Shown here piece by piece: positions 3-48,298 of a stretch of 64,000 nucleotides of DNA. Each line of letters begins with the position of its first letter. The first letter of the stretch is position 1. Both the position numbers and the translations under genes were made by a program. The notes under the pieces are model-generated. The model was not told the DNA's origin and did no database searches. It worked only from the letters and a program-made list of their open reading frames with translations. Origin of the DNA: Thermoplasmatota archaeon (lineage in GTDB: Archaea; Thermoplasmatota; E2; JACPAO01; JAHFTW01). The stretch spans positions 224,001-288,000 of the forward strand of contig JBFIHX010000002.1 of assembly GCA_041601615.1 (NCBI GenBank), written 5' to 3'.

Positions 3-404
3 AGCGACGAGCAGGCGGTGGGGTAGGTGTGGGCGGCGGTGTTGCATGTATCTGCTAACGAGTGCTGCGACGAGTACGAAGCCGAACAGGTAGCCGGCGG
101 TGGCGCCGACGAAGTGTTGTAATCCGCTAGCGCCTTGGGCAAAGACTGGGGCGCCGAGGGCTCCGGCGGCAAGATAGATGAGCACGGAAAGGGCGGCCAA
201 GCCGGGCTTTTGGTAGCCGCCGGCCACCAGCAGCGCGAAGGGCATCATGGAGAAGGGCACGGGAGTCCAAGGCAGCGGGAAGCTGATTTGTGCCATGAGG
301 GCCAGGAATCCTGCAAAGCCGAGGCTGGTGGCGAGGCGCACGGGCCAGCCGGGGACCGTGGGCGTTGCTAGGAGGTGCGACAGCACTTGCTCGTTCTGGC
401 CCAT
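3..404 (-). CDS. bioY: Biotin transporter BioY (5' part; runs off the window edge)
   Basis: Not in the ORF track. Manual translation from ATG 404: MGQNEQVL...ALMAQISFPLPWTPVPFSMMPFALLVAGG...SVLIYLAAGALGAPVFAQGASGLQHFVGATAGYLFGFV, which matches the BioY signature (AQIxxPLPxTPVP; GxPVF; TxGYLxGF). Starts 25 bp downstream of the PKS stop. Confidence 0.88.
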   Translation of the reverse strand, partial: MGQNEQVLSHLLATPTVPGWPVRLATSLGFAGFLALMAQISFPLPWTPVPFSMMPFALLVAGGYQKPGLAALSVLIYLAAGALGAPVFAQGASGLQHFVGATAGYLFGFVLVAALVSRYMQHRRPHLPHRLLVA

Positions 405-429
405 GCGGGCGCCACATTCAGCCCCGGGT

Positions 430-3400
430 TTAGGCATGGCTGGCGGTCTCCGGTTCTTCGGTCATGGGGTCGAAGTCGGCGAGGCTCACGGCGAGTACGC
501 GGCCTTCGATGCTCCAGAAGCGCACGCCGAAGGTGCCGTCGGGGCCGGTGACGGTTGCTCCTCCGGCGCCGTCGGGCATGACGGTCCAGGCGCGTAGCGC
601 GGAGCGGAGGCCTGTGCCGGTGCGTTTGAAGACGGCTTCTTTGGCGGCCCACATGCAGGCAGCGGCGTTGTCGTCGGCGGCTACGGGGGCTTCGGTGTCG
701 TTGAAGGCTTCTTCGCGCCAGGCGGCGGATCGCTGTTTGACGGTTTCGAGGTCGATGCCGAGGGCGGTGGGGGCCAGGGCTGCGATGGCGAGGCCGTCGC
801 GGTGGGTCAGGCTGAGTTCGTAGTTGGCTGCTTTTCCGTGTAAGTGCAGGACCGGTTTGCCGCCATCGGAGTTGACCACCGTGACCTCAAGCGCGGAGAC
901 GTTGGCTCCGGCTGCGATGGCGACTGCTTTGGCGGCGAGTCGTCCGGCGCGCCATTCTTCGGCGCGCTTGGGGGCCTTGAACGCTTCTGCGGTGCCGAGT
1001 TCTTCTTCCGTGAACCATTGGGGGTCGGGGTCTGCGTCGGCGACGGGGACGGCGGCAAACAGGGCGCCGGTGTCGTCGGGAAGGCCGAGGTCCACGGTGG
1101 GAATGGGGACGGCTTCGGGTTCTGCCGAGGCGGCGGCGGGCGTGCTTTCGGACAGGGTTTTTTGCACGGGTGCGGCGGAGTTGTCCGTGGCTTGGGGTTC
1201 CGACAGTTCCACGATTGGCTTGGGCGTCGCGTCCTTGTCTGCGTGCCCGTTTTGGTGGCCGTTGGTGGGTTCGGATGCCGCTGGAGGCGCGGGGGTGTCG
1301 GTGTCGCTGCCGGGGACGTCTCCGGTTTCGACCATGCCGTATTGGACCATGCGGACGAGGACGGCGCCGTCTTCGGTGCAGGCGGCGGCGTCGAAGCGGT
1401 AGAGGCCGTTGTCGTCGCGACCGGCAAATCGAGTCCAGAGTCGTGTTTCCTTGGGCAGGGGCCCGTAGTGCAGGATGTCCAGGCGTTCGATGGCAGCGGG
1501 CAGGCTCATGCGGCCATCGACGGTCATGGTGCGCAGACCGCAGACCTGGAACAGGGCTTCCACGAGCAGCGGGTGGACGTGCCATTCTGGCGATGTTCCT
1601 TCAAGCACGGGCGCTTCGGGGGTGACGCCGATGCCGACGCTTTCGTCGTCGAGTGGGCCGGCGTAGCGTAGCACTTGGAAGCTTGGGCCGTGGAAGAATG
1701 GCGGGTAGATCGAAGCGTGGTCGCGGTCGCGGGTGCAGGCGGGCACTTCGCTGGTGCGGCGGGGGGCTGCGGCGGCGCCGAAGTGGATCGTGGCGGCAAA
1801 GTGGGTCCGTGGCTCGCCGCGTTCTTTGCCGTCAGGGCCGACCATGCGGCTCCAGAGCGTGCAGGTGATTCCGTCGCCTTCGGCGGCGCGGGTTGCGGTG
1901 ATGCGGGCCACGGCGGGGCGGTCCTTGAGTTGCTTTAGGGGGATGCCGAAGGAGGCGTTGGTCACACGAGTACAGACGGTGTCGGCGGGTGCAAGAAGGG
2001 AGGCTGTCTCGGCGAAGGCTTCGAGGCCAAACACGCCGGGCAGGTAGGGCACGCCGTCGATGGCGTGATCGCGAGCGTAGGCTTGGGTCGCTTGGTCCAT
2101 TTCGATGCGCGTGGTCACCGAGTCGGCCGTTGCGGTCTCGACGCCGGCCAGAAGCGCGAACCGTTCGGGTGCGGATTCCATGCGGGCTTGGTGTTCGCCG
2201 AGGCGCGGGTCCCATGCAGCGTCGACCACTTGGCCGTCGGCGTCGATGGCGCCCACGTTCCCAGCGACGACCGATTCGCGGATGCCGGGGGTGCCTAGTT
2301 CGGCGAGGAATTGGGCGACTCCGTCGGCGGTGGGGATCGGAGTCACACCGGTGCTTTCCATGATTTGCAGGATGCTGCCTTTGGTCGCCATGCCCACTTC
2401 GCCCCAGGGGCCCCATGCGATGGTGAATGCGGTGGGGACGTTGCGCTCGGCTGCGGCGACTTGGACGGCCTTGCAGAGGTATTCGTTGGCGGCGCTGTAG
2501 TCGGTTTGGCCGATGTTGCCAAAGCGTCCGGCGACACTGCCGAAGGCCACCAAAAATTCGAGCTCGTCTTCGGCGGTGGCGGCCATGAGGGCGTTCCAGC
2601 CGTCGTGTTTGATGCCAAAAACCCAGTCGAATTGCTCGCGGTCCTTCGAGGCGAGGTCTTTGCTGATTTCGACGCCGGCTGCATGGATGACGCCGTGGAT
2701 GGCGCCGAATCGTTCGCGTGCGTGGTCGAGGGCTTCGCGCACGGCGTCGTGGTCGGTGACGTCGACGCTTGCGTAGGTCACTTCGGCGCCAAGATCCGAG
2801 AGGCGTTGCAGGTTGCGTTGCACTTCGGCGGCTTTGCGAAGTGGCGACATGGCTTTCTGAATCGACACCGGGGTGACCTTGGCGCCGGCTTCCTTCATCG
2901 CGGCCATTTGGCGTTGTTCTTCGGCCTTCCACTCATCGTCCGTCCAGCTGGCCCAGGTTTCGGCTTCTTCGGCCATGGTGGTGCGGCCAAGCAGCATGAA
3001 GTTGGGGTGTTGCGGTGCGAGGGCGGCCAGGAGTTCGACGGTGATGCCTTGGGCACCGCCGGGAACGATGAGGGTCTTGCCGGAGACATTCGGGGTGCCT
3101 TCGAGCGCTTCGGGAGCTACGTCGATGACAAACCGGGTACCCTCCGCGTCAAAGGCAATCTCGGTGCGGCGGCCGCCTTCGATGACTTCGGCAAGCACCA
3201 TGGCGGGGGCGTCCGAAAGTTTGGGGTGGAGATCGATGACCTTGACCACGGCGCCTTCGAATTCCTTTTTGAGTGCCTTGCCGAAACCGGCCACGGCGGC
3301 CATGGTGGCGTCGCGGGGAGCCGCCAATCCGTGGGCTCCGTCTTGGCGAGTGACGACTGCGACGAAGCCGTTTTTGAGGGCGTTTTGGTGCGCTTTGGCG

Positions 3401-6400
3401 GCGTCGAACATGGGTCCGAGGCGAGCGGGAGCGGAGTCCCCGCGTCGCGTGGCGAGGCACAGCAGACCGACGGGGGTGTCGTCGTCGTGCAGGCGGAAGG
3501 TTGGCTTCCAGCCGGCTTCTTTCCAGGCGTCCAGGAATGCGGTGTCGGCGTCGCCGACCACGAGGAGGGTTCCTTTGGCAAGGTCGTTGCTTTGGTGGGG
3601 GCTGGGGGCGGGGCGCACCGTGGGCACGCGGCGAACGATCGCTTGGCTGGGCTCAGAGGCCGTGGTCGCATCTGCCGTGGCATCGGCGGCGGGCGCGTCG
3701 GTTGCGCCGGCGTTGCTTGCCATATATGCGGCGACCTTGGCGAGGGTGTTGTAGTCCTTGAGTTGCAGGTCCTCGCGCATCGGGACGCTGAAGCGGTCGC
3801 GCAGTTCGCCAAACAGTTCGGCTTGCTTGACGGTGTCAATGCCAAGGTCTGCTTCCATGTCCAGTTCGGGTTCGAGCATGTCCACGGGGTAGCCGGTTTT
3901 ATCGGCCACGAGGGCGATGACTTGGGCCAGTACGTCGGCGGTGTCGGTGCCGGCCGTGGATGCGGCAGCGGGCGCTGGCGTCGAAACCACAGTGGCGACG
4001 GGCGCAGCGGCGCTTGCTCCTCCACCCATATATGCCGCGACTTTTCGCAGCGTGTTGTAGTCGGCGAGGCTCAGGTTTTCGTCGAGCGGGACGCCGAAGT
4101 GATCGCGCAGTTCGCCAAACAGTTCGGCTTGTTTGACGGTGTCGATGCCGAGGTCTGCTTCCATGTCGAGATCCGCTTCGAGCATCTCGACGGGGTAGCC
4201 GGTTTTGTCCGCGATGACGGCGGTGACCTTGGCAAGCACTGCATCGTCGGTCTCGGCGGTGGTCGCGGAAACCGGTGTCGCGGGTGCGGCGGCAGCCGGC
4301 GAGGCGGCGGCGGGTGCACTTTCTGCGGTGGCGACGGGCGCGGCGGTGCTGCCTCCCACGCCAAGCCCGACTTGCGTCGGACTCGGCCGCGCCGAAACTT
4401 CGCTTTGCGAAGTTCCGCCACCCATGTACTCGGCCACTTTGCGCAGGGTGTTGTAGTCCTTGAGTTGGAGATTTTCGTCGAGCGGCACGCCGAAGCGGTC
4501 GCGCAGTTCGCCAAACAGTTCGGCTTGTTTGACGGTGTCGATGCCGAGGTCCGCTTCCATGTCGAGGTCGGCTTCGAGCATCTCGGGTGGGTAGCCGGTT
4601 TTTTCGGCCACGAGGGCGGTTACGTCGGCCAGCACATCGGTTTCGGGTGCGGTTTGTGCGGCGGCGGGAACGGGGGCGGGCGATGCGACCTCTGCGGCGG
4701 CGATGGGCGCGGAGTTGCTTGTTCCTCCAGCCATATATCCCGCGACCTTGCGCAGGGTGTTGTAGTCCTTCAAGGACAGCGATTCGTCCAGGGGCACGCC
4801 GAAGGTCTCGCGAAGCTCGCCAAACAGTTCGGCTTGCTTGACGGTGTCAATGCCGAGGTCCGCTTCCATGTCCAGATCTGCTTCGAGCATCTCAGGCGGG
4901 TAGCCGGTCTTGGAGGCGACGAGGTCCGTCACTTTCTGCAGCACGTCGGCTTCGTCTGCGACCACGACAGGCGAGGCGACTGCGGCGACGGGGGCAGGTT
5001 CGGCTGCTACCACGACAGCGGGTGCGGTGCGCTCGGGTGCTCCTTGGTCCACGATGCGCAGGGTGCGGTTTTGCACCTCGGTTGCGGCGGCGGGAAGGCC
5101 ACTGACGCTGGACAGCCAAGCGTCGTACTGGGCCTGGTTTGCCACGCGCTCGTCTTCGCGGGCCACGAGTTGGGTGAGGGTCATGGCGACTTGGCTGCCG
5201 AATCCGGCGGCGAGGCGTAAGGCGTAGCGCACGTCGTAGGCGCCGCCCTTGGACAGGTTGAGGTCGCCCAGTTCGGGGTCGGGGTCGCGGAAGTTGGCGA
5301 TGGGGGGCACGGTGCCGCGTTGGAGTGCCTTGAGGGCAATCGCATCTTCAACGCCGGCACCTTGTGGGTGTCCCGTGAAGCCCTTGGTGTTGGCGATGAC
5401 GACCTTGTTGGCGTTGGTGCCGAAGGTCGCGCGCAGGGCGTGGATTTCTGCCGAGGCCGAGCCGCCGCGTGCGGGGGTGTAGGTCTCGTGGCTCATGAAC
5501 ATGGTCTGGGCCGCGATGGCGTCGGCGTGGATGCCGTACCGGGCGCCGGCTTTGGCCATGAGGCCCTGCATGCATTGGCTGATGTGGTCCACGTCGAGGC
5601 GGCTGCCGTGGAAGGCGCTGTTTGCGACGGTGGTGGCCAGGAGTTTGGCGATGGGTCGCATGCCGCGTGCTTCGGTTTCGGGGGTGGCTTCGATGACGAG
5701 GCCGACGGCGCCCATGCCGACAATCATGCCATGGCGCCGAGCGTCGAAGGGAAGGGCTGCGTCTTCTACGCGGTTTTTGGTCGTCGCGGCGCCGGAGGCC
5801 AGGAATCCGCTGCCGATCCATTCGAAGAGGGCGTCGCTGGTTACATCGTCGGCGCCGACTACGAGTACGCGTTTGCAGCGGCCGGTGCGAATCCAGTCTT
5901 CGGCGACGGTGATGGCTTGGGTGGTGCTGGCGCAGGCGGCGTTGAGTTGGGTGTTGGGTCCGCGAGCACCGATGAATTGCGCGAGTTGCGCGTGTCCCAT
6001 ACTTAGGACGTTGAACAGGAATTTGCGGTTGAATTCGTAGCGGGCAGCGCCGTGGTCGGGCAGCACGTCTTGCAGGCGGGCAAATTCCGCTTCAAAGCCG
6101 GTGGTGAGGTTGTTGCGTAGGTCGTCGTCGGTAACTTGGCCAAGCAGTTCGTCGTAGAGGTTGCGCAGGTCGTCGAGGGTGCGGCCGGCGTATTTGTCGG
6201 CAAGGTATCTGCTGATGTCGCGCACGAGGTTGTCGATGCCGGGGAAGGCGCTGGCAAACACGATGCCTGTGTCGTCGCGCATGGGTTCGGGCAGTTTCCA
6301 GTCCTTGGGCAGGTGGCTGCCGGTGGTGGTTTGGAGGTAGGTGCGCTGGAGCGGGATGCCTGCGTCGCGTAGTGCTTCGAGGCCGGCGGCGATGGCGTAT

Positions 6401-9400
6401 TGGAAGGTGCGGTCGAGGGTGGAGGCGAAGTCGGCGTCGACGCCCCATTCGGTGACGTCGAAGTCGCCGCGGCGGCCTGCGAGTTGGATGACTTGGGCGA
6501 TGTCGTCGATGGCTTGGAAGGTGCCTTGGCCGCCGCCGCCTTTGACGAGGCGGACGATGTTTTTGCTGGCCATTTTTTGCTGCTCGGTTTCGGGCAGGGC
6601 GTCGATGAGGTTGTCGCCGCGCAGGATGCGGTCCCAGTCGTCGGTGGCAAAGAGTGGTTTGTGGGTGCCGGGGAGTCCAACACTGATGCCGCTGATGCCG
6701 ATGTCGTCGAGGTTGATGCCGAAGGCGTCCATCTTCGCCTTTAGTAGCAATTCGCTACTGTTTGGTAGGTTTTTGCTACTAAGGGCTGCGACGGGGGCTG
6801 GGGCGCTGGTGGCTACGGCGGAGGCGGGTGCGGAGTTTGTGGTCGGAGTCGGAGTGGAGGGGGCGGCGGGCGAGGAGCTCATGCCGTCGAGGGTGCGGGC
6901 TAGGTCGCGAAGGGCGCCGGCGATGATGTCGATGCGGGCGTCGGCCACGGGTGCGGGCGCGGCTGCGGGGGCGGCTTGGGCGAGGGCGCTCGTGGTGCGG
7001 GTGAAGGCGGTTTTGGGCTCGCGGAATTCTGCGGTGTAGACGGCGGAGTCGTTGAGGTCCGGGAGCTTGGGAAGGTAGCCCCAGGCGCCGAGGAAGGCAA
7101 ACAGTTCGTTGATGTGTTGGATTCCGCCCTTTTTGGGGTGGTTGGCGCAGATGGCGACGGCGTCGCCTTTGCTGCCGAGGATGTCGTAGGCGAATCCGGT
7201 GAGCGCCTTCTTGGGGCCCACTTCGATGAAGGTGCGCACACCTTCGCTGTACATGCGCTCCATGATGTCGATCCATTCGACGGGGCTTGCCACTTGCACG
7301 GCGAGGTTGTCGCGGATGGCTTCGGGGTCGTTGCCGTAGGGTTCGGCGCCGACGTTGCTGAGGATGCGGACCTTGGGGGCTTGCACGTCGAGGCGGGCCA
7401 ATACGTTGCGCAGGGGTTTGCTTGCGGGGGCGACGATGTCGCTGTGGAAGGCGGCGCTGACGGGCAGTGGGATGCACTGGAGGCCTTGTGCGGTGAGTTT
7501 GGCCATGGCGGCGTCCACTCCGGCGCTGCTGCCGGCGATGACGGTTTGGCTGGGGCAGTTTTTGTTGGCGCAGATGACGTATTCGTCTACGTCGGCGATG
7601 GCGGCGGACACGGTTTCCCAGTCGGCGGGGATGCTGGCCATTTTGCCAAGGTCGGGAAGATCCACGTTGGCCATTTCGCGGCCGCGTGCGGCGACGGCGT
7701 GGAGCGCGTCGGCGAAGGTGAGGACGCCGGCTGCGACCAGGGCGCCGTATTCGCCGAGTGAGTGTCCGGCGACCACGTCGGGTTGGATGCCCCATTGCTT
7801 CATCATGCGAAGCAGGGCGACGTCCATGGCAAGAACGGCGGGCTGGGTGAACTCGGTGAGTTTGAGTTTTTCTTCGGAGGCGGCGCGGTTTTCGGCGGTG
7901 TCTGGGGTGGGCCAGAGGATGTCGGTGAGTTTGACGCCGTCCAGTTCGTCGTGGAGGACTGCGTCGGCTTCTTCGAAGGTGTGTTTGACGACGGCGTATT
8001 TTTGGGCAAGGTCGCGGCCCATGTTGACGTACTGGGTGCCTTGGCCGGGGAATAGGAAGGCGACTTTGCCGCGTGGTTCGCCTTGGCCTAGAAATACGCC
8101 TTGGTTGAAGGCGAGTTTGGCGACGGCGGATTGGGTGGCGGCTTTGGCGGCGAGTTCCAGCTTCTTGGGGATTTCGTCAAGGTCCGTGGGGGCGATGCCG
8201 ACGCGGCGCTCGGCGCGTACACCGGCTTGGGTGAGTTCGTAGAAGGCGGCGCGGTAGCGGGGGCCGTTGCCGGTCTTGGCGAAGGTCACGGCCGAGGGAA
8301 GCGCGGTGAGGCTTGCGGGGAGGGCGTCGGCGTCTAGGACGAGCGGAGTCTGTTCTAGTGCGGCGGCTTGCTCCATGTGGGAAGCAAAGCCGGCGGCGTC
8401 GAAGGTGGTCATGGGGATGGTCGCCTCGGGTTGCGTCGTGGCGGACGGAGGGGTGGGGGCTGTGGCGGCGGTGGGCGCCGGGGCGGGGATGGGTGCGGAG
8501 TTGCGGGTGGCGGGGTCCACGAATTGGAGGGCGCCGGGAACGTATTGTTCGAGGACGACGTGGAAGTTGGTGCCGCCGAATCCGAAGCTGCTGACGGCGG
8601 CGCGGCGCGGGTGGTCGGCAGGGGTTTCCCAGGGCGTTCGGGACGTTGCGACTTGGAAGGGGCTGGTGGCCCATTCGATTGCGGGGTTGAGGGTCTGGAC
8701 GTTGATGCTGGGTGGAATGATGCCTTCGCGCACGGCGAGCACGGCCTTGAGCATCCCGGCGGCGCCGGCGGCGGCCTTGAGGTGGCCGATGTTGCTTTTG
8801 ACGGATCCGACGCGGATGCTGCCGACGGGTACGTCGGCGGCGCGGATCTGTTGGAACGCTTCGCGCACCGAATTGAGTTCGACGGGGTCGCCAACGGGGG
8901 TGCTGGTGCCGTGGGCTTCGACGTAGCCGACGGTGTAGGGGTCCATTTCGGCTTCTTCATAGGCGCGGCGTACGGCTTTGACTTGGCCGCGCGGGTTGGG
9001 GGCGGTGATTCCCTTGCCTTTGCCGTCGCTGCTGCCGCCAACGCCTCGGATGACGGCGTGGATGCGGTCGCCGTCGCGTTCGGCGTCGCCGAGGCGTTTG
9101 AGGATGAACATGGCGCAGCCTTCGCCCATGACGAATCCGTTGGCGCCGGCGTCGAAGGGCCGGCTGCCGTCGGGCGACAGGGCTCCGATGGCGCTGAATT
9201 GGATGTAGGGCGTGATGTCCATGCTGCGGTCGGTGCCGCCCCAGACGACGAGGTCGCTTTCGGCGTCACGAAGAGAGTCGATGGCGGCGTCGAGGGCCGC
9301 AAGGGAGGACGCGCAGGCGGCGTCGGTGGTGAAGTTCTTGCCCCCGAGGTCGAACACGTTGGCGATGCGGCCGGCGACCACGTTGGACAGGTGCCCCGGC

Positions 9401-9981
9401 ATGGTGTCTTCGGTGACGGGGACGGTGTTGGCTTTGTAGCGCGCTTCGGCGCGGTCGAGCATCGCCGCCCGATCGCTGCTGCTGAGGTGTTGGAAGGTCT
9501 CATCGGCTTCGATGGCGGCGCGGGCTTCGGGCCAGAAGAGGCGTTTGGTGGCAATTTTGTTGGATTCGCCGCCCATGGCGTTGCCGATGATGACGGCGGT
9601 GCGGTTGCGGTCGAAGTCGCGTCCGGGTGCGTCGCCTCGGATGCCGGTTGCGAGTCCCGCGTCGAGGAGTGCTTGGCGGGCGGCCGACAGCGCCCACTGT
9701 TGGCTTTGGTCCACCTGTTTTTGCACTTGTGGCGGCATGCGGTATTCGAGGCCCTGGAAGTTGTCGTCGCTGACGAAGGCGCCGATTTTGGCGTAGGTTT
9801 TGTCTGGTGTTTTTGCCGAGTCGTAGTAGAGCGCGGTGTCCCAGCGGGTGGGCGGGACTTCGCGGATGCTGTTGCGGCCCTCGACGAGGTTGTTCCAGAA
9901 GGTTGGAATGTCGGGGGCGTCGGGCAGGACGCAGCCCAGGCCGATGATGGCGATGGGCTCCTTGGTGACGGTGTCGGACAT
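430..9981 (-). CDS. Iterative type I PKS/FAS megasynthase, KS-AT-KS-ACPx4-KR-DH-PPTase (3183 aa)
   Basis: KS1: DAACASSL, HGTST, KSNIGHL. AT: FPGQG, GHSLG, AAFHS. KS2: NAACAST, HETYT, KGFTGHP. Four ACP repeats with DLGIDTVKQAELF. KR: GGAQGI, HAAG, GNIGQTDYSAAN. DH: DHAIDGVPYLPG, FHGPSFQ. C-terminal Sfp-like PPTase: GRLAAK, SLTH, GIDLE, WAAKEAVFK. Confidence 0.95.
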   Translation of the reverse strand: MSDTVTKEPIAIIGLGCVLPDAPDIPTFWNNLVEGRNSIREVPPTRWDTALYYDSAKTPDKTYAKIGAFVSDDNFQGLEYRMPPQVQKQVDQSQQWALSAARQALLDAGLATGIRGDAPGRDFDRNRTAVIIGNAMGGESNKIATKRLFWPEARAAIEADETFQHLSSSDRAAMLDRAEARYKANTVPVTEDTMPGHLSNVVAGRIANVFDLGGKNFTTDAACASSLAALDAAIDSLRDAESDLVVWGGTDRSMDITPYIQFSAIGALSPDGSRPFDAGANGFVMGEGCAMFILKRLGDAERDGDRIHAVIRGVGGSSDGKGKGITAPNPRGQVKAVRRAYEEAEMDPYTVGYVEAHGTSTPVGDPVELNSVREAFQQIRAADVPVGSIRVGSVKSNIGHLKAAAGAAGMLKAVLAVREGIIPPSINVQTLNPAIEWATSPFQVATSRTPWETPADHPRRAAVSSFGFGGTNFHVVLEQYVPGALQFVDPATRNSAPIPAPAPTAATAPTPPSATTQPEATIPMTTFDAAGFASHMEQAAALEQTPLVLDADALPASLTALPSAVTFAKTGNGPRYRAAFYELTQAGVRAERRVGIAPTDLDEIPKKLELAAKAATQSAVAKLAFNQGVFLGQGEPRGKVAFLFPGQGTQYVNMGRDLAQKYAVVKHTFEEADAVLHDELDGVKLTDILWPTPDTAENRAASEEKLKLTEFTQPAVLAMDVALLRMMKQWGIQPDVVAGHSLGEYGALVAAGVLTFADALHAVAARGREMANVDLPDLGKMASIPADWETVSAAIADVDEYVICANKNCPSQTVIAGSSAGVDAAMAKLTAQGLQCIPLPVSAAFHSDIVAPASKPLRNVLARLDVQAPKVRILSNVGAEPYGNDPEAIRDNLAVQVASPVEWIDIMERMYSEGVRTFIEVGPKKALTGFAYDILGSKGDAVAICANHPKKGGIQHINELFAFLGAWGYLPKLPDLNDSAVYTAEFREPKTAFTRTTSALAQAAPAAAPAPVADARIDIIAGALRDLARTLDGMSSSPAAPSTPTPTTNSAPASAVATSAPAPVAALSSKNLPNSSELLLKAKMDAFGINLDDIGISGISVGLPGTHKPLFATDDWDRILRGDNLIDALPETEQQKMASKNIVRLVKGGGGQGTFQAIDDIAQVIQLAGRRGDFDVTEWGVDADFASTLDRTFQYAIAAGLEALRDAGIPLQRTYLQTTTGSHLPKDWKLPEPMRDDTGIVFASAFPGIDNLVRDISRYLADKYAGRTLDDLRNLYDELLGQVTDDDLRNNLTTGFEAEFARLQDVLPDHGAARYEFNRKFLFNVLSMGHAQLAQFIGARGPNTQLNAACASTTQAITVAEDWIRTGRCKRVLVVGADDVTSDALFEWIGSGFLASGAATTKNRVEDAALPFDARRHGMIVGMGAVGLVIEATPETEARGMRPIAKLLATTVANSAFHGSRLDVDHISQCMQGLMAKAGARYGIHADAIAAQTMFMSHETYTPARGGSASAEIHALRATFGTNANKVVIANTKGFTGHPQGAGVEDAIALKALQRGTVPPIANFRDPDPELGDLNLSKGGAYDVRYALRLAAGFGSQVAMTLTQLVAREDERVANQAQYDAWLSSVSGLPAAATEVQNRTLRIVDQGAPERTAPAVVVAAEPAPVAAVASPVVVADEADVLQKVTDLVASKTGYPPEMLEADLDMEADLGIDTVKQAELFGELRETFGVPLDESLSLKDYNTLRKVAGYMAGGTSNSAPIAAAEVASPAPVPAAAQTAPETDVLADVTALVAEKTGYPPEMLEADLDMEADLGIDTVKQAELFGELRDRFGVPLDENLQLKDYNTLRKVAEYMGGGTSQSEVSARPSPTQVGLGVGGSTAAPVATAESAPAAASPAAAAPATPVSATTAETDDAVLAKVTAVIADKTGYPVEMLEADLDMEADLGIDTVKQAELFGELRDHFGVPLDENLSLADYNTLRKVAAYMGGGASAAAPVATVVSTPAPAAASTAGTDTADVLAQVIALVADKTGYPVDMLEPELDMEADLGIDTVKQAELFGELRDRFSVPMREDLQLKDYNTLAKVAAYMASNAGATDAPAADATADATTASEPSQAIVRRVPTVRPAPSPHQSNDLAKGTLLVVGDADTAFLDAWKEAGWKPTFRLHDDDTPVGLLCLATRRGDSAPARLGPMFDAAKAHQNALKNGFVAVVTRQDGAHGLAAPRDATMAAVAGFGKALKKEFEGAVVKVIDLHPKLSDAPAMVLAEVIEGGRRTEIAFDAEGTRFVIDVAPEALEGTPNVSGKTLIVPGGAQGITVELLAALAPQHPNFMLLGRTTMAEEAETWASWTDDEWKAEEQRQMAAMKEAGAKVTPVSIQKAMSPLRKAAEVQRNLQRLSDLGAEVTYASVDVTDHDAVREALDHARERFGAIHGVIHAAGVEISKDLASKDREQFDWVFGIKHDGWNALMAATAEDELEFLVAFGSVAGRFGNIGQTDYSAANEYLCKAVQVAAAERNVPTAFTIAWGPWGEVGMATKGSILQIMESTGVTPIPTADGVAQFLAELGTPGIRESVVAGNVGAIDADGQVVDAAWDPRLGEHQARMESAPERFALLAGVETATADSVTTRIEMDQATQAYARDHAIDGVPYLPGVFGLEAFAETASLLAPADTVCTRVTNASFGIPLKQLKDRPAVARITATRAAEGDGITCTLWSRMVGPDGKERGEPRTHFAATIHFGAAAAPRRTSEVPACTRDRDHASIYPPFFHGPSFQVLRYAGPLDDESVGIGVTPEAPVLEGTSPEWHVHPLLVEALFQVCGLRTMTVDGRMSLPAAIERLDILHYGPLPKETRLWTRFAGRDDNGLYRFDAAACTEDGAVLVRMVQYGMVETGDVPGSDTDTPAPPAASEPTNGHQNGHADKDATPKPIVELSEPQATDNSAAPVQKTLSESTPAAASAEPEAVPIPTVDLGLPDDTGALFAAVPVADADPDPQWFTEEELGTAEAFKAPKRAEEWRAGRLAAKAVAIAAGANVSALEVTVVNSDGGKPVLHLHGKAANYELSLTHRDGLAIAALAPTALGIDLETVKQRSAAWREEAFNDTEAPVAADDNAAACMWAAKEAVFKRTGTGLRSALRAWTVMPDGAGGATVTGPDGTFGVRFWSIEGRVLAVSLADFDPMTEEPETASHA
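3720..4950 (-). repeat. Four tandem near-identical ACP-coding repeats separated by Ala/Pro-rich linkers
   Basis: Four copies of KTGYPxxMLExxLDMEADLGIDTVKQAELFGELR...DYNTL. Thr codons (ACC) at 4843-4845, 4534-4536, 4138-4140 and 3832-3834. Confidence 0.92.
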
Positions 9982-10092
9982 GGTTGGGGGCTCCGTGGGC
10001 GGGGTCGGAGGGGAACGGGAGAGGCGGGGGGTTGGAAAAAGGACTGGACTGATGGAGGTCGGGTCGGCGGGCGCCGACGGGGGGCTGGGGGG

Positions 10093-11703
10093 TTAGAGGG
10101 GGGTGAGGCCGTGCTTCTTGGCGGGCCGGGTTTCGCGCTTTTGCAGGAGCGGTAGCAGGGCTGCGATGAGGCGGGGCCGGGTCTCGCGGGGTTCGATGAT
10201 GTCGTCGATCCAGCCGCGTTCGGCCGCGACATACGGATTGGCGAATTTGCGTTCGTATTCAGCGGTGAATTCGGCTTTGCGTGCCTCGGCTGCGGCGGGG
10301 TCGGTTTTGGCAAGTTCCATGAGTTCGCGCCGGTGCAAGATTTCCACGGCGCCGCTGCCGCCCATGACGGCGATTTCGGTGCCGGGCCAGGCGAGGTTGC
10401 AGTCGCTTCCCACGTGCTTCGAGGACATGACGATGTAGGCGCCGCCGTAGGATTTGCGCAGAACCACGGAGAGCTTGGGCACGGTGGCTTCACAGTAGGC
10501 GTACAGGAGTTTGGCTCCGTTGCGGATGATGCCGCCGTGTTCCTGGCCAAGGCCGGGCAGGAAGCCGGGCACGTCCACGAAGCTGACGATCGGGATGTTG
10601 AAGGCGTCGCAGAAGCGGATGAATTTGGCGCCTTTGATGCTGGCTTCGATGTCGAGGGCACCGGCGAGGACGGCGGGTTGGTTGGCGACGATGCCGACGG
10701 GGATGCCGTCGAGGCGGCTGAAGCCAATGACGAGGTTTTGGGCCCACTTGGGTTGAATTTCTAGGAACGAATCGGTGTCCACTACGCGCTTGACGACGTC
10801 GCGCACGTCGTAGGGTTTGTTGGCGTTGGAGGGGACGATGTTGTCCAATTCGGGGTCCATGCGGCCGCGTGCGTCGCCGGGGTTTTCCTTGATGGGGAGG
10901 TCGGCGAGGTTGTTGGCGGGAATGTAGCTGAGAAGTTTGCGGATGAGGAAGATGCTGTCGTCTTCGTCGACGCCGCTGAAGCTTGCGACACCGGATTTTA
11001 CGGTGTGGACGCTGCTGCCGCCGAGTTCCTCTTGGCTGGCTTCTTCGCCGGTGACGGTCTTGACCACGTCGGGGCCGGTGACGAACATGTGGCTGGTGTC
11101 GTCCGTCATGATGACGAAGTCGGTGAGGGCGGGGGAGTACACGGCGCCGCCGGCAGAAGGGCCGACGATGACCGAAATCTGCGGCACTACGCCGCTGGCC
11201 TTGACGTTCCTGAAGAAAATGTCACCGTAGCCGGCAAGGCTTGCCACACCTTCTTGGATGCGTGCGCCGCCAGAGTCATTGAAGCCGATGACGGGGGCTC
11301 CGATGGCGAGCGCCTGGTCGAGGACTTTGGCAATTTTTTGCCCGGTTTGGTAGCCGAGGCTGCCGCCGAGGACGGTGAAGTCTTGGGCGTAAGTGAAGAT
11401 GACTTGGCCGTTGATGGTGCCGTGGCCGGTGACGACGCCGTCGCCGTCGAAGGCGTGACGATCCATGCCAAAGTCGGTGGATTGGGTGCGCACGTAGGGA
11501 TCCATCTCTACGAAGGAGCCTGGATCGAGCAGAAGTTCGATGCGTTCGCGGGCGGTGTATTTTCCCTTCTTGTGTTGCGCTTCGATGCGAGCTGCCCCGC
11601 CTCCCATGTGTGCCTTGGCGCGGCGTTCGCGCAGGATTTCCACGGGGGAGGGCTTGATGTGGCCGTTCGTAGCCTGGGGGCTCGCGGGGACGGTCTTGGC
11701 CAT
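10093..11703 (-). CDS. Acyl-CoA carboxylase carboxyltransferase (beta) subunit, PccB/AccD type
   Basis: ARERIELLLDPGSF, GDGVVTG, QDFTVLGGSLG, DSGGARIQEG, DVPGFLPG, RKSYGGAY, KKHG. Start set at MAKTV (11703), which has a TATA-like element about 25 bp upstream. Confidence 0.93.
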   Translation of the reverse strand: MAKTVPASPQATNGHIKPSPVEILRERRAKAHMGGGAARIEAQHKKGKYTARERIELLLDPGSFVEMDPYVRTQSTDFGMDRHAFDGDGVVTGHGTINGQVIFTYAQDFTVLGGSLGYQTGQKIAKVLDQALAIGAPVIGFNDSGGARIQEGVASLAGYGDIFFRNVKASGVVPQISVIVGPSAGGAVYSPALTDFVIMTDDTSHMFVTGPDVVKTVTGEEASQEELGGSSVHTVKSGVASFSGVDEDDSIFLIRKLLSYIPANNLADLPIKENPGDARGRMDPELDNIVPSNANKPYDVRDVVKRVVDTDSFLEIQPKWAQNLVIGFSRLDGIPVGIVANQPAVLAGALDIEASIKGAKFIRFCDAFNIPIVSFVDVPGFLPGLGQEHGGIIRNGAKLLYAYCEATVPKLSVVLRKSYGGAYIVMSSKHVGSDCNLAWPGTEIAVMGGSGAVEILHRRELMELAKTDPAAAEARKAEFTAEYERKFANPYVAAERGWIDDIIEPRETRPRLIAALLPLLQKRETRPAKKHGLTPL

Positions 11704-13193: not shown

Positions 13194-15017
13194 ATGAAAG
13201 TCGCCCTCATGCAAGCGTGGGTCGTTCCGGCAGCCGTTGCGGCCGTGCTTGTGATGAGCCTTGGCGCCGGCCTTGCATTGGACCATGACCGAGATGGCGC
13301 GAGCCTTTGGACGGAGCTGGGGGCGGGCACGAGTCCCTGGCGCGGCGACACGGACGGCGACGGCCTTCCGGACGGATACGAGCTGAACGCGGGGCTGCCT
13401 GCCCGGCGCGCCGACGCAGACCGCGACGGTTTGTTGGATGGTGCTGAGGTTGCGGCGCGCAGCAATCCGTTGGCCTCGGACTCGGACGGCGATGGAATTC
13501 CGGATGGCGAGGAAGCGGCGCGGGACTGCGACGGGGACGGCTTGTTCGCGGTGGCAAGTTCCGATGACGACGCGGACGGACGACCTGATGCGGCGGAACC
13601 GGGGCGCGACTGCAATGCCGACGTGGATGGCGATGGGGTCCTGGATGGCCGCGAGGGCAACGAGGTGTGCATTGTGTCCGCGGATTGTGACCGAGATGGA
13701 TTGACAGATGGCGTGGAAGCGGAACTTGCTTACGATCCGTTGGACCCGGACACGTTCGATACTGGGCTTACGGATGCGGTGGCGTATGCGTTCCAGCGCG
13801 GCGGCCAAGACCCTGGCGCGGACGCGGACAGGGACGGCATCCCGGATCCATGGGAGTCAGAGGATGGCCTCATTGCGTGGGGCGGTCTTCAGCCAGAAGC
13901 GGGGCGGCGAGATCTCTTGGTGGAGTACCTGCGCGTCGTCGGTCCGGGCAGCGAAAAATACCCGGGATTGAACTTCGACGAGGTGTACAGGAACGTGGCG
14001 CGGATGTTTGCGGATGAGGCAGGCATCACCATGTCTTGGGTCGAGACCATTGTGCGGCTGGACATGGACGAGCGCCCGGACATTTTGACGCCTGAGACTC
14101 TGCCGTACTATGATCTTGTTCTTGACGGCGCCGTGCACACGGACAACCCGTTTGTCACCACGGTCGTCTTGAACCCCCAGCAACAACAGCAGCATGCCGG
14201 GGACGTACTCGGCGCCGCTTTCTTGCGCTCCATGATTGCCACCATCGACTACGGGGCGCACACGAATCTCATCTTTACCAATCCCGACCTTGGAGAGCTG
14301 CGCGTCAGCCCGGTCTTTGAGAGTCATGTGGCCACCGGCAACGCCGCCAAAATCCGTGCGCTTGGATTCGAATCGAGCGGCGCAAACGGCAACCGCGTCT
14401 GGCTGCGCGACGCCGACGGAGATGTTCTAGGCGCGCCCGGGAAGGTCGAATGGCGGCCGGAGTGGTTCTTTGAGCCGCCCACTTTGACCTTCGACGAGTT
14501 CGGCACCTATGAGTTCCTTCGAGATCGCGCTTGGACGGACGAGCCCGAATTGGCCTCCACCATCGCCCACGAGGTCGGGCACACTTTGGGCCTGTGCCAC
14601 GCGCACGAATCGGAATGCTTTGGCGCGTACTCGCCCAGCGACCGGGAAGCGCGCCACAGTAGCACCATGAGCTACGGCGCTCCGGTTGGGACTCTGCATT
14701 TTCTTGCCTCCGAGTGGGATCAAGTAGCGGCGTACCTGCGCTGTCCTCCGCAACAAACCGTGCAACTCGTGGCAGACGGAGGCGACGAGGATGCGCTGCG
14801 GAGGGCCAAGTACCAGACCAGTTTCGTGGAAGCTGGATCACAACGAGCGTGCGGTGATCTTGCGCCGATGCCGCGTCAATTTGAACCCGTAGATGCCACC
14901 ACATATCGGTCCACGTTTGCAGCTCCCGGGGCGGTGCATGGTGGCGGCTGGGCGATGCTTGCGCATGGTGCCTTGACCGCTGTGGCCGTGGTGCTGATTT
15001 TGCGCAGACGACCTTAG
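13194..15017 (+). CDS. Membrane-anchored zinc metalloprotease (metzincin-like) with Ca-binding DxDxDG repeats
   Basis: N-terminal hydrophobic segment, multiple DxDxDGxxDxxE repeats, HEVGHTLGLCH (HExxHxxGxxH), STMSY Met-turn, C-terminal TM plus RRR. Confidence 0.8.
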   Translation: MKVALMQAWVVPAAVAAVLVMSLGAGLALDHDRDGASLWTELGAGTSPWRGDTDGDGLPDGYELNAGLPARRADADRDGLLDGAEVAARSNPLASDSDGDGIPDGEEAARDCDGDGLFAVASSDDDADGRPDAAEPGRDCNADVDGDGVLDGREGNEVCIVSADCDRDGLTDGVEAELAYDPLDPDTFDTGLTDAVAYAFQRGGQDPGADADRDGIPDPWESEDGLIAWGGLQPEAGRRDLLVEYLRVVGPGSEKYPGLNFDEVYRNVARMFADEAGITMSWVETIVRLDMDERPDILTPETLPYYDLVLDGAVHTDNPFVTTVVLNPQQQQQHAGDVLGAAFLRSMIATIDYGAHTNLIFTNPDLGELRVSPVFESHVATGNAAKIRALGFESSGANGNRVWLRDADGDVLGAPGKVEWRPEWFFEPPTLTFDEFGTYEFLRDRAWTDEPELASTIAHEVGHTLGLCHAHESECFGAYSPSDREARHSSTMSYGAPVGTLHFLASEWDQVAAYLRCPPQQTVQLVADGGDEDALRRAKYQTSFVEAGSQRACGDLAPMPRQFEPVDATTYRSTFAAPGAVHGGGWAMLAHGALTAVAVVLILRRRP

Positions 15018-15215
15018 AGCCATAGTAGCGACTCCGTTGCAGCTCGTGTTCCGCATGCTCTCGCCGCATGATCCATCCAATTTGGTTCGCAATCAGCGGA
15101 TTTGGACGGTAGAGCGGCAACGACCACATCGACGCTCGGACGTTTTCACGGGTTGCCTACCCGATTGCGTTCGGGCGCATCAATGTTTATCACGCGACTT
15201 GGACCTCGAACCTTG

Positions 15216-17255
15216 ATGCGTGGGCGGGCCCTCCTTCTTGCTCTGCTGATGCTACCACTTGGGGCCACCAGCCAAGAAAGCCCACCGTCGGCCCCGGTTG
15301 GGTACGTCGAGGAGAGCTTCATGCACACCGCCGCCGACGGCACGGAGTTGGCCGCCACACGGTTTACGCCGCATGGCGACGGCCCTTTCGCCGCGATGCT
15401 CATTACCAACGGCTGGACCAATCGGCACAGCACCGGCAACGAACGCTGGTGGAGCGAACACTACGCCGAACAAGGCTACCTTGTGTATGCCTACACCAGT
15501 CGTGGCTGGGGCAAAAGCAGCGGCGAAATCGAATTGAACGGACCCAAGGAAGTCAGCGACGCGCGCGAATTCGTGGACTTGATTGCCGCCGATCCAAACG
15601 TCCTCCTGGATGCTCCGGGGGATCCTCGTGTCGGTATGATCGGATCCTCCTACGGCGGCGGCATCCAATTGCTCACGGCCCGAGAGGAGCCACGCATCGA
15701 CGCCATTGCTCCGCACAACACCTGGAGTGATCTCCTGGAAAGCCTCGTTCCTGATGATGTTCTCAAGCGCATCTGGACAAGCCTCTTGCTTGCAAGCGGT
15801 GCCGCCGAGGGCAACGGGATTCCCCTCGACGGCAACCCAGGCATGGCAGAGCCAGGCTCCGAAGGCCCCATGCGGCAGCTGTACGAATGGTATGCAGAAG
15901 TCACGGCCTTGAATGCGCCCAGCAGCAATATGCGCGAAGCCTTGGGCAACGTTCGTAGCCTGCACGCGGGCGAACTGGAGACCCCCACGTTCCTCGTCCA
16001 AGGCTGGCCCGATACCTTGTTTCCCGCAAGCCAAGCACTGCGCACCCAAGCCATGCTGCAAGAGTACGGCGTGCCCGTGCGCATGGCCATCGCCGACATC
16101 GGCCACGGCGGCTTCGGCACCGTCGATCCCGCCGTCCAGGCATACGTCGACGACTGGTTCAACACCACGCTGAAAGACCGAGCGCCCACGCTTCCGCCCT
16201 ATCCGGTGTTGCGCCATCGCTACGGCCAAAACGACCTCGTGGGCGAGATGCAGTGGCCCCCCGCCGGCACCACTCTCGCGCGTTACTACCTCCACGCGGC
16301 CGGCGAAGGCGGGCTCCGGCCAGGCTTTCCTGAATCCTCCACCCAGACTTTGCTTGTTGCTCCGGCCGTTCCCGCATCCTGCACGGAGTTCAGCCAATTT
16401 CAGTCCTACAGCAACGAAATCTGCCCCTTCGGCGTCCCGCAAACGCTTGCCCAATGGAGCACAAAGCCGCTTGCGGCCGCCGTCGAGGTCACGGGCACGC
16501 CGCGCCTCAGTCTGACGCTGGAGGGTGATCAAATCGAGGGCGTGATGCTGTTTGCCCAGCTTCAAGACATCGCCCCCGACGGCAGCGTGACGCCCGTTTT
16601 GTACCAAGTGACCGCCATGCGTGACTCCACCAGCACCCCGCACCGGCGCGACTTGGATTTGGAATCGATCAGCCACGAATTTGCCGTTGGCCACCGCATT
16701 GGCCTTCAAGTTGCGACCACCGATCTTGCATTCGCTTGGAGCCGTACCCACGGCCTCGTGACTTTGCACTCCGGCGGAGCTGCAGAAGCCTGGCTGGACG
16801 TGCCCATGGTCCCGAGCGACGCCCACGGGGACCGCATCCCTCCGACCGTCCGCGTGCGCGGCAGCGAAGAAGCCCGGCCCGGCGCCTCGTTCCATTTCAC
16901 CGTGGTCGCGTTCGACAATCTTGCCATGGGGCCACTCGAGGTCACCGTCGGAGACACCCGCCTCCAGAGCCTATCATCGGAGGGCATTCTGCATCGCTTC
17001 CAAGTGCAGCTCCCCGAAAATGAAACCGCCGCCCAGGTGTTGCTTGACAGCATCACGGCAACCGCGACGGACCTTGTGGGAAACCGCGCAACGGCCACCC
17101 TCCGAGAATCCTCCCAGCCCGAGCCAAGCCCAGGAGAATTGCCCGAGCCGCCGAGCAAAAAGAAGAGCCCCGGCCTCGGACCCGTGCTTCTCATCGGTCT
17201 TCTTGCAGCACTCGCCACCGCGCGACGACGCAACGAAGGATCGCCCCGAGCCTAG
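15216..17255 (+). CDS. CocE/NonD (S15) family secreted serine hydrolase with C-terminal sorting tail
   Basis: Signal peptide, RGWGKSSG, GSSYGG nucleophile motif, PepX-like C-terminal domain, KKSPGLGPVLLIGLLAALATARRR tail. Confidence 0.85.
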   Translation: MRGRALLLALLMLPLGATSQESPPSAPVGYVEESFMHTAADGTELAATRFTPHGDGPFAAMLITNGWTNRHSTGNERWWSEHYAEQGYLVYAYTSRGWGKSSGEIELNGPKEVSDAREFVDLIAADPNVLLDAPGDPRVGMIGSSYGGGIQLLTAREEPRIDAIAPHNTWSDLLESLVPDDVLKRIWTSLLLASGAAEGNGIPLDGNPGMAEPGSEGPMRQLYEWYAEVTALNAPSSNMREALGNVRSLHAGELETPTFLVQGWPDTLFPASQALRTQAMLQEYGVPVRMAIADIGHGGFGTVDPAVQAYVDDWFNTTLKDRAPTLPPYPVLRHRYGQNDLVGEMQWPPAGTTLARYYLHAAGEGGLRPGFPESSTQTLLVAPAVPASCTEFSQFQSYSNEICPFGVPQTLAQWSTKPLAAAVEVTGTPRLSLTLEGDQIEGVMLFAQLQDIAPDGSVTPVLYQVTAMRDSTSTPHRRDLDLESISHEFAVGHRIGLQVATTDLAFAWSRTHGLVTLHSGGAAEAWLDVPMVPSDAHGDRIPPTVRVRGSEEARPGASFHFTVVAFDNLAMGPLEVTVGDTRLQSLSSEGILHRFQVQLPENETAAQVLLDSITATATDLVGNRATATLRESSQPEPSPGELPEPPSKKKSPGLGPVLLIGLLAALATARRRNEGSPRA

Positions 17256-28291: not shown

Positions 28292-28364
28292 CGCCCCGAT
28301 GGGGATTTGAACCCCAGTCGACGCCGTGACAGGGCATCATGATAGGCCACTACACTATCGGGGC
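28292..28364 (-). tRNA. tRNA-Asp(GTC), downstream copy
   Basis: GCCCCGATAGTGTAGTGGCCTATCATGATGCCCTGTCACGGCGTCGACTGGGGTTCAAATCCCCATCGGGGCG; cloverleaf with anticodon GTC. Confidence 0.95.
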
Positions 28365-28492
28365 TGGTGGCAAGGGCACTCAATGAGCGCCCCGATGGGC
28401 GGCGGCAAAAGCCAGAGGTTTTTGCCGGCGAGCGAGGTCAGAAAGTCGAACGGGCCTTCTGATTTGGTTGGCTTGCCAACGGCAGGCCAGAG

Positions 28493-28565
28493 CGCCCCGA
28501 TGGGGATTTGAACCCCAGTCGACGCCGTGACAGGGCATCATGATAGGCCACTACACTATCGGGGC
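28493..28565 (-). tRNA. tRNA-Asp(GTC), upstream identical copy
   Basis: Sequence identical to 28292-28364. Confidence 0.95.
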
Positions 28566-28679
28566 GGGCGGTGCGAGTGCGACGGCGGAAGGGACGGACC
28601 GCGATGGGCCGGCTTCCGTGTCTCCGTCTGCTGGGTCGGGCCAAACCGAAGTTTGACCCTCATGGAACGCTGTCCACGA

Positions 28680-28753
28680 TGGGTCCGGCCAGATTCGAAC
28701 TGGCGATCTTCGCCGTGTGAAGGCGACGTCATAACCGACTAGACCACGGACCC
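28680..28753 (-). tRNA. tRNA-Val(CAC)
   Basis: GGGTCCGTGGTCTAGTCGGTTATGACGTCGCCTTCACACGGCGAAGATCGCCAGTTCGAATCTGGCCGGACCCA; anticodon CAC. Confidence 0.95.
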
Positions 28754-48097: not shown

Positions 48098-48298
48098 TCA
48101 AGAATCCTTGAGATAATGCGCTGCGTGTTCCTCGGCCTTCTGGTAGCGGGCAAGGTACATGCCTGCGAGCACGACCAGCACTGCCAAGAGAGCTTCGCCA
48201 AACAAGAGGACTACCAGGGGTGCTCCCACGAGGACCGCCATGGTCCAAGCCAAGAGGCCGCCCATGAGTGCCGCAGCCACGGAAGCCAGTTGTTTCAT
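48098..48298 (-). CDS. Small two-TM protein coupled to nirK
   Basis: 66 aa, hydrophobic; ATGA overlap with the nirK stop. Confidence 0.55.
   Translation of the reverse strand: MKQLASVAAALMGGLLAWTMAVLVGAPLVVLLFGEALLAVLVVLAGMYLARYQKAEEHAAHYLKDS

Follow-up and report, generated by a model that had tools for sequence, protein, structure and literature searches.

A predicted malonyl-fed acyl-chain megasynthase of the Type R family in an operon of a Thermoplasmatota archaeon

Introduction

The closest described relatives of the operon studied here are the Type R clusters. According to Shulse & Allen (2011, PMC3098273), these pfa-like secondary-lipid clusters comprise one pfaA homologue, with the domain order ketosynthase (KS), malonyl acyltransferase (MAT), chain-length factor (CLF), three to six acyl carrier proteins (ACP) and ketoreductase (KR), and a 4'-phosphopantetheinyl transferase (PPTase). 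The same paper places them in Roseiflexus, Elusimicrobium and Acidobacteria, with an acetyl-CoA carboxylase (ACC) gene sometimes in the cluster, and reports their product as unknown. Here we analyse a 64,000-nucleotide stretch of a Thermoplasmatota archaeon (C2:224001-288000, hereafter the window), in which a 3183-aa megasynthase is encoded together with carboxylase and biotin transporter genes. By its sequence, this megasynthase is an archaeal member, with a fused PPTase, of the uncharacterised Type R family, and we consider it probable that the operon works as a malonyl-fed acyl-chain synthase. The genome is a metagenome-derived draft (2.79 Mb, 30 contigs, GC 0.62, completeness 93%, contamination 0.28%), and C1, C2 and C14 are contigs of this one assembly.

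In the textbook view, archaea make isoprenoid ether lipids and have no ACP-dependent fatty-acid synthesis. How archaea that carry lipid genes of the bacterial type would obtain acyl chains is among the unsettled questions of the 'lipid divide'. Surveys of biosynthetic gene clusters list polyketide synthase (PKS) genes in metagenome-assembled genomes (MAGs) of Thermoplasmatota and Asgard archaea, in general terms (PMC11051675). Our literature searches covered main texts. Two genome papers on Marine Group II, a group that may or may not correspond to a family coded in our survey, do not use the words polyketide, ketoacyl, acyl carrier or malonyl in their main texts (PMC6461757, PMC6336850). Likewise, we found neither a later characterisation of Type R nor any account of the enzyme in archaea.

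Results

Domain organization of the megasynthase

The megasynthase gene (window 430-9981, minus strand, as are all its domains) carries Pfam and NCBIfam domains in the order KS1, acyltransferase (AT), KS2, four carriers, KR, dehydratase (DH) and PPTase, all in a single frame. KS1 (residues 8-480; 8542-9960) matches ketoacyl-synt (1e-76) and Ketoacyl-synt_C (7e-46), and its Cys and two His motifs are present in the sequence. The AT (residues 642-928; 7198-8058; Acyl_transf_1 1.7e-44, FabD TIGR00128 242.7 bits) has the motifs GHSLGE and AAFHS. We take the second of these to be a sign of malonyl specificity, and the AT is probably malonyl-specific.

The second ketosynthase, KS2 (residues 1091-1650; 5032-6711), is FabF-like. 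Alignment to FabF structures matched its Cys, His and His to the catalytic residues of FabF, and Cys/His/His/Lys are invariant in 81 of the 81 aligned family members, the bacterial ones included. Because the Cys/His/His triad is kept in all of them, KS2 is predicted to be an active ketosynthase and not a chain-length factor.

KS2 is followed by four tandem carrier domains (3712-4944; PP-binding 4.4e-38 in four stretches) and by the KR (residues 2308-2527; 2401-3060; Pfam KR 2.5e-31). The DH (residues 2612-2883; 1333-2148) is of the PKS type: the region scored over the cut-off with PS-DH (2.3e-12, 47.2 bits) and under it with PKS_DH_N (24.5 bits). It contains at residue 2639 an H-x3-G-x4-P stretch, presumably the dehydratase motif of that name. 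The fused C-terminal PPTase (residues 3003-3159; 505-975) is Sfp-like and passed the cut-off of ACPS (35.6 bits), not that of 4PPT_N (19.2 bits). It is very remote from the solved PPTases, the best match being AcpS (E 2e-4; Sfp E 0.03), and is one of two PF01648 matches in the genome. No enoyl reductase (ER) or methyltransferase was present among the Pfam and NCBIfam domains of the megasynthase.

Threonine at the carrier attachment site

In all four carriers the position of the phosphopantetheine Ser is occupied by Thr (residues 1713, 1816, 1948 and 2050), within the motif DLGIDTVKQAE. In phmmer alignments to the solved ACPs 5y08, 1x3o and 1klp, this Thr falls exactly on the phosphopantetheine Ser. 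The carriers of the window therefore lack the conserved Ser that is expected of an ACP. Note that this is a feature of the family: Thr was found in 208 of 208 such motifs across 72 homologue loci, archaeal and bacterial, and the canonical Asp-Ser carrier motif was absent from the megasynthase frames of these loci. Orthologous synthases from other families of the phylum can have Ser instead of Thr, in both carriers of locus L124 (family f13) and in one of six carriers of locus L120 (family f23), where the other five have Thr in the same protein. This exchange is as expected if the hydroxyl is what matters.

The carriers of the nonribosomal peptide synthetase (NRPS) and of the PKS module encoded in the same genome have the usual Ser. 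We infer from these patterns a dedicated PPTase-carrier pair that would use Thr. In the literature searched, we found no description of Thr-linked phosphopantetheine or of a Thr carrier motif.

The NRPS and the PKS module belong to a second cluster (C1:340353-359874), in which a 4865-aa NRPS with five condensation, four adenylation and four carrier domains and a thioesterase lies beside a 1123-aa KS-AT-ACP module. A stand-alone PPTase gene (C1:365483-365707) is located about 6 kb from this cluster.

The synthase lies within a complete set of acyl-CoA carboxylase genes

The gene order is carboxyltransferase (CT), megasynthase, BioY, biotin carboxylase (BC) and biotin carboxyl carrier protein (BCCP), followed by tRNA-Lys. 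The CT, or beta, subunit of a biotin-dependent acyl-CoA carboxylase (10093-11703, minus strand) has 536 aa when read from its ATG, and its longest open reading frame (ORF) extends to 11835 with a TTG start. It matches Carboxyl_trans (PF01039, 2e-189) and reaches 752 bits with the NCBIfam mmdA subfamily, under the cut-off of that model. Among solved structures, 1vrg and 1xnw, both beta subunits of propionyl-CoA carboxylases, come closest, at about 652 bits. The genome has three Carboxyl_trans genes, that of the operon among them.

The BioY biotin transporter component (3-437, minus strand) is cut by the window edge, so that its N-terminal 145 aa lie in the window; the full ORF (C2:223559-224437) encodes 292 aa and matches Pfam BioY with 93.3 bits. 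Left of the window, the BioY stop codon overlaps the start codon of the BC gene (C2:221995-223566), whose 523-aa product has the three Pfam domains CPSase_L_D2, Biotin_carb_N and Biotin_carb_C (3e-75, 3e-44 and 4e-36). Next comes the BCCP gene (C2:221492-221998; 168 aa), whose product matches Biotin_lipoyl (1.5e-18) and contains EAMKMQ, the biotinyl-Lys motif. All the parts that define a biotin-dependent acyl-CoA carboxylase, namely CT, BC and a BCCP with the biotinyl-Lys motif, are thus present, and together they form a complete acyl-CoA carboxylase on either side of the megasynthase gene.

The original prediction, made from the window, had described three co-oriented genes for a carboxyltransferase, a 3183-aa type I megasynthase and BioY, and all three are indeed on the minus strand at these places. 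Its gap of 111 bp between CT and megasynthase is correct, and that of 25 bp between megasynthase and BioY applies only if BioY starts at the ATG at 404: its longest ORF starts at 437 and overlaps the megasynthase stop by 8 bp. Of the genes expected beyond the left edge, BC and BCCP were found there and BirA was not, the sole biotin/lipoate ligase match of the genome being on contig C14 and none beside the operon. As for the proposed (methyl)malonyl-CoA extender, the AT looks malonyl-type, by its FabD score and by the AAFHS rule that we assume.

Enoyl-reducing partners and lipid genes

An ER domain was absent from the megasynthase and from the six other megasynthase frames of the order that were scanned or mapped. 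Other branches of the family have candidates for this step. In 34 of 55 bacterial loci, a gene of the acyl-CoA dehydrogenase (ACAD) family (about 545 aa) is located 14-222 bp upstream on the same strand. Electron transfer flavoprotein (ETF) subunit genes lie beside the bacterial ACAD in a few loci, and ETF alpha plus a further conserved gene in some. The cluster-linked ACAD is a possible flavin-based enoyl reductase for Type R. The bacterial ACAD genes (loci L055-L112; for example L065:5297-6931 and L076:3038-4794) also carry a C-terminal extension.

Relatives of about 3580 aa, in Asgard, Bathyarchaeia and Zixibacteria records, have an NMO-type ER (PF03060) among their precomputed Pfam domains, and the synthase of locus L123, from one Thermoplasmatota family, resembles these ER-bearing Asgard-type proteins in its N-terminal part. 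Since an enoyl-reducing partner is common across the family, these gene contexts suggest that such a partner is usual and that a reduced chain is the family's basic product. In the window's order, this would mean either a trans-acting reductase of another kind or a polyene or hydroxy chain.

The genome also encodes lipid enzymes of two kinds. It has a geranylgeranylglyceryl phosphate (GGGP) synthase (180.7 bits) and, on the same contig, a candidate glycerol-1-phosphate (G1P) dehydrogenase, together with a GpsA-like gene and three PlsC-family acyltransferases, one of them AGPAT-like and one PlsB/GPAT-like. PlsY was not found in the genome, and PF01553 had no match in any of four control archaea. 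The PlsC family is present in 30 of the 30 genomes of the order and in 1 of 10 genomes from other families of the class. The FabA/FabZ family (PF07977) had no match in the genome (93% complete), and there is therefore no sign of a type II system.

The operon is native to the archaeal genome

GC is 0.63-0.67 across the first 12 kb and 0.58-0.67 in the rest of the window. The five operon genes have GC3 values of 0.77-0.80 and their relative synonymous codon usage (RSCU) correlates with that of the genome at 0.89-0.96; in the reference of 680 ORFs the median RSCU correlation is 0.893 and the 5-95% range of GC3 is 0.665-0.827. The archaeal tRNA-modification genes RaSEA (TIGR01210, 297.5 bits, cut-off 212) and Pus10 (TIGR01213, 385.7 bits, cut-off 200) lie in the window. 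The same contig carries a fragment of archaeal small-subunit (SSU) 16S rRNA (C2:27-767), and the bacterial SSU rRNA model had no match in the genome. About 120 kb separate the operon from the nearer end of this 350-kb contig.

The arrangement is conserved in relatives. By tblastn, CT is upstream of the megasynthase in 10 of 10 relatives' loci, BC and BCCP are downstream in 8 of 10 (in one of the other two the contig ends about 300 bp past the gene) and BioY is present in 4 of 10. Several of these syntenic loci sit on contigs of 143-450 kb, which counts against a chimeric join. Note that the archaeal synteny counts were taken from tblastn: the clustering of neighbour genes sometimes chose antisense ORFs over CT or BC in GC-rich archaeal loci, so that its archaeal counts are too low, and the two antisense clusters over these genes had no Pfam match. 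We conclude that the operon is native to this archaeon and long inherited.

Distribution and phylogeny

The N-terminal 1100 aa of the megasynthase were found in 28 of the 30 genomes of the order (22 of 24, 4 of 4 and 2 of 2 in families f1, f2 and f3) and in 0 of 10 genomes from other families of the class. In a survey of 251 genomes of the phylum, in which relatives of KS2 were counted at E<=1e-80, 84 genomes had one, mostly within frames of about 2900-3800 aa. Families f31 (30/30), f23 (21/24), f15 (9/9) and f13 (6/17) and the window's order (7/7) carry it, and f4 (0/30), f10 (0/28) and f5 (0/11) do not in this sample. The PlsC family accompanies the synthase in 83 of the 84 genomes, and 143 genomes of the sample have neither. 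Six loci from other families of the phylum share a common backbone with variations: L121 and L122 have an extra N-terminal carrier, and CT adjoins the synthase in two of the six.

Full-length public relatives bear generic names only, such as 'SDR family NAD(P)-dependent oxidoreductase'; their sources are Thermoplasmatota MAGs and records labelled as Heimdall-, Thor- and other Asgard archaea, as Bathyarchaeia and as many bacteria. Species-representative genomes hold at least 579 homologue loci, and the best 80 of these include Chloroflexota, Acidobacteriota, Spirochaetota, Elusimicrobiota, Pseudomonadota and Actinomycetota.

A first KS2 tree, built from 81 sequences, places the window with its order. 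One of its branches (SH-aLRT 91) separates all 55 bacterial rows from the Thermoplasmatota and Asgard-labelled ones. When six more families of the phylum were included, the two long-branch rows, those of f31 and f13, were placed with the bacteria (support 88); starred branches force no more than one change. Because of this shift, a single archaeal origin is neither shown nor excluded by the sequences. The trees were used unrooted and give no donor or recipient direction between bacteria and archaea. A root with KS1 domains as outgroup was discarded: the branch leading to them amounted to about 10 changes per column in all, and the root was placed within the family of the window itself. Records labelled 'uncultured Halobacteriales archaeon' or 'bacterium' (L041, L043, L046, L067 and L095) group with the window's order, and these submitters' labels look wrong.

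These data bear on the remaining claims of the original prediction. The similar composition that it had judged by eye is borne out by window GC, by GC3 and by codon usage, and its archaeal gene context by RaSEA, Pus10 and the SSU rRNA fragment; synteny, codon usage and conservation across the order support the dedicated, domesticated pathway that it proposed. The two findings that would have spoken against it, a chimeric junction or a close homologue of known product, did not appear: we saw no sign of the former, and no characterised close homologue was found in the literature searched. On the other hand, the enzyme is neither rare, given its presence in 84 of the 251 sampled genomes, nor without precedent, the bacterial counterpart having a name, Type R (PMC3098273).

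Other features of the region

Two large peptidase genes adjoin the operon (window 13194-17255, plus strand). One of them combines a TSP3 repeat with a reprolysin-like metallopeptidase part, and the other belongs to the S15 X-Pro dipeptidyl-peptidase family. Further along the window are a cluster of tRNA-Asp, tRNA-Asp and tRNA-Val (28292-28753, minus strand) and a NirK copper-containing nitrite reductase (48295-49668, minus strand; TIGR02376 336 bits, over the cut-off) whose N-terminal part is cupredoxin-like.

Just left of the window there is a Druantia type II-like defence pair (L012:7110-13957, that is C2:213110-219957). Its DruE, of 1879 aa, matches PADLOC DruE2 over the full length with 1700.8 bits, and its second member, a cytosine methylase, matches DruM2 with 187.6 bits. 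This stretch has a lower GC3 and an HTH gene and lies beside the tRNA-Lys (L012:15291-15366), and it looks like an integrated island in the archaeon.

Discussion

Our results point to the following pathway. CT, BC and BCCP, with biotin supplied through BioY, would carboxylate acetyl-CoA to malonyl-CoA. The fused PPTase would arm the four tandem carriers at Thr, the AT would load malonyl units onto them, and KS1 and KS2 would extend the chain iteratively, each beta-keto group being taken to the enoyl stage by KR and DH. As no ER adjoins the operon, reduction by an enzyme encoded elsewhere would then yield a fatty acyl chain; otherwise the chain would be polyunsaturated or hydroxylated. The most likely fate of the product would be transfer to glycerol-phosphate lipids by the PlsB/PlsC-type acyltransferases.

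The product is thus probably a long acyl chain, either a reduced fatty acyl or a polyene, and as in the original prediction this acyl or polyene nature is what we infer from the encoded domains. Between a reduced fatty acyl for glycerolipids and an unsaturated secondary lipid, the balance is roughly even. The full proposal is that an ACP-dependent synthase makes acyl chains de novo from malonyl-CoA and feeds PlsB/PlsC ester lipids beside the ether lipids, using Thr-linked phosphopantetheine and a dedicated PPTase fused to it in archaea; we offer it tentatively, as a possibility that may well prove wrong in one of its parts.

Several observations weigh against the pathway outlined above. The nearest solved relatives of CT are propionyl-CoA carboxylases, so that the substrate of the carboxylase may be acetyl- or propionyl-CoA. 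We know of no precedent for a carrier Thr, and activation of the carriers is an assumption. No thioesterase or other release domain was found in the megasynthase. In the genome, a tblastn search with the Asgard-type N-terminal part gave no match and one with the bacterial ACADs gave only generic ACADs of 30-36% identity, none of which aligned to the C-terminal extension. Searches with PF03060, the Asgard-type part and ACAD/ETF gave no ER candidate in the genome (FabV, FabI and MDR-type reductases were not searched), and a saturated fatty acyl product is therefore without direct support. Finally, 24 genomes of the phylum sample have the PlsC family without the synthase, and the co-distribution of the two, though strong, is largely a clade-level one that involves few clades; it is not independent and gives no statistical proof.

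The same missing reductase is the basis of the strongest alternative, in which each cycle would halt at the enoyl or hydroxy stage and the product would be a 'secondary' one, either a conjugated polyene or a polyhydroxy compound (for example a pigment, an antioxidant or a signalling lipid), and not a bulk membrane fatty acyl. The lack of an ER in the megasynthase and in six other frames of the order, and a genome in which reductases of the PfaD, Asgard and cluster-linked ACAD types were not found, are in line with this alternative, as are the PKS-type DH and a PPTase placed after KR-DH, which resembles the layout of the polyene-making enediyne PKSE as we know it. However, bacterial and Asgard-labelled relatives usually have a reductase partner, and a trans-acting reductase of an unrecognised type may exist here. 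Moreover, tandem carriers and a dedicated carboxylase suggest a high flux, and the tight association with PlsB/PlsC-type acyltransferases fits acyl lipids. We regard a secondary product of this kind as unlikely, but as an alternative to be taken seriously.

A canonical polyunsaturated fatty acid (PUFA) synthase subunit PfaA, making omega-3 fatty acids like eicosapentaenoic or docosahexaenoic acid, is far less probable. The megasynthase shares with PfaA the KS-MAT-tandem ACP-KR-DH backbone and the iterative use of malonyl units, and its score with the PfaA model TIGR02813 is just over the cut-off (1051.9 against 1010.1 bits). It differs from PfaA in the second KS inside the protein, in the fused PPTase and in carriers with Thr, not Ser. 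In addition, our searches of the genome revealed no FabA-type dehydratase/isomerase domains and only weak, partial matches to a PfaD-type ER (NMO-type, PF03060; best 30.5 bits). The sole other KS gene found with the N-terminal query is the KS-AT-ACP module beside the NRPS, and no PfaB or PfaC partner was seen. Because the pass with the PfaA model is marginal and the partners of a PUFA synthase were not found, we place the megasynthase in Type R.

Finally, a bacterial fragment misjoined to archaeal DNA during assembly or binning, or a very recent transfer without a role, is barely credible: the family is most diverse in bacteria and the genome is a 30-contig draft of metagenomic origin, but the operon lies deep inside a contig with an archaeal 16S fragment, RaSEA and Pus10, has the codon usage typical of the genome and a reading frame open through 3183 codons, recurs with conserved neighbours in nearly all genomes of the order, several times on long contigs, and in the first KS2 tree groups with its order, apart from every bacterial row.

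If Thr does bear phosphopantetheine, a universal post-translational modification would gain a new form, which would extend to hundreds of bacterial genomes as well. The operon provides a concrete, clonable candidate, with one enzyme predicted to be self-activating and its own supply of malonyl-CoA. The ACAD and ETF neighbours in bacteria suggest, in turn, an unusual route of enoyl reduction for a family that has lacked an assigned product since 2011.

How does this operon compare with the known systems? The enediyne PKSE is an iterative type I, self-activating synthase with a single ACP, a KR-DH-PPTase end, no ER and no second KS, encoded in an enediyne cassette. By domain order, the megasynthase shares with it the KR-DH-PPTase end and the lack of an ER; unlike it, the megasynthase has four carriers, KS2 and carboxylase neighbours. 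The carboxylase resembles PccB, an actinobacterial acyl-CoA carboxylase CT subunit (PDB 1xnw): the operon CT aligns to it end to end (652 bits) and, as in PccB-type hexameric carboxylases, BC and BCCP are separate or adjacent genes. Unlike the PccB systems, the carboxylase genes of the operon enclose the megasynthase and BioY.

The likeness is greatest to Type R, as this is described in PMC3098273. The single frame with KS1-AT-KS2, four PP-binding domains and KR, plus a DH, corresponds to KS-MAT-second KS-like domain-ACP(3-6)-KR, and the PPTase directly after the synthase is here fused to it (residues 3003-3159), whereas 29 bacterial homologue loci have a gene of its own for it, downstream of the synthase. 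Common descent is also apparent. KS2 relatives that are 47-58% identical and share the domain order occur in records labelled Roseiflexus, Elusimicrobia and Acidobacteriota, and records with these labels, which are not the paper's own genomes, stand in one tree with the KS2 of the window. The point that does not agree is the second KS-like domain, labelled for Type R as a chain-length factor, a kind of domain with no active-site Cys; KS2 keeps its Cys/His/His. It therefore seems that the published CLF label, rather than membership of Type R, needs revision.

In other respects the archaeal operon goes beyond the published clusters. The word 'archaea' does not occur in PMC3098273, and the host of the window is an archaeon. 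A full three-subunit carboxylase and BioY in the operon, and a detectable PS-DH domain, are likewise unlike Type R as described there. Linkage to carboxylase genes extends to the bacterial homologue loci, with CT in 21, BC in 19, BCCP in 12 and a fused ACC in 5 of them. Three features of the family seem to be unreported: a second KS that is predicted to be active, carriers that have Thr and would be served by a dedicated PPTase, and a lineage-specific pattern of reductase partners.

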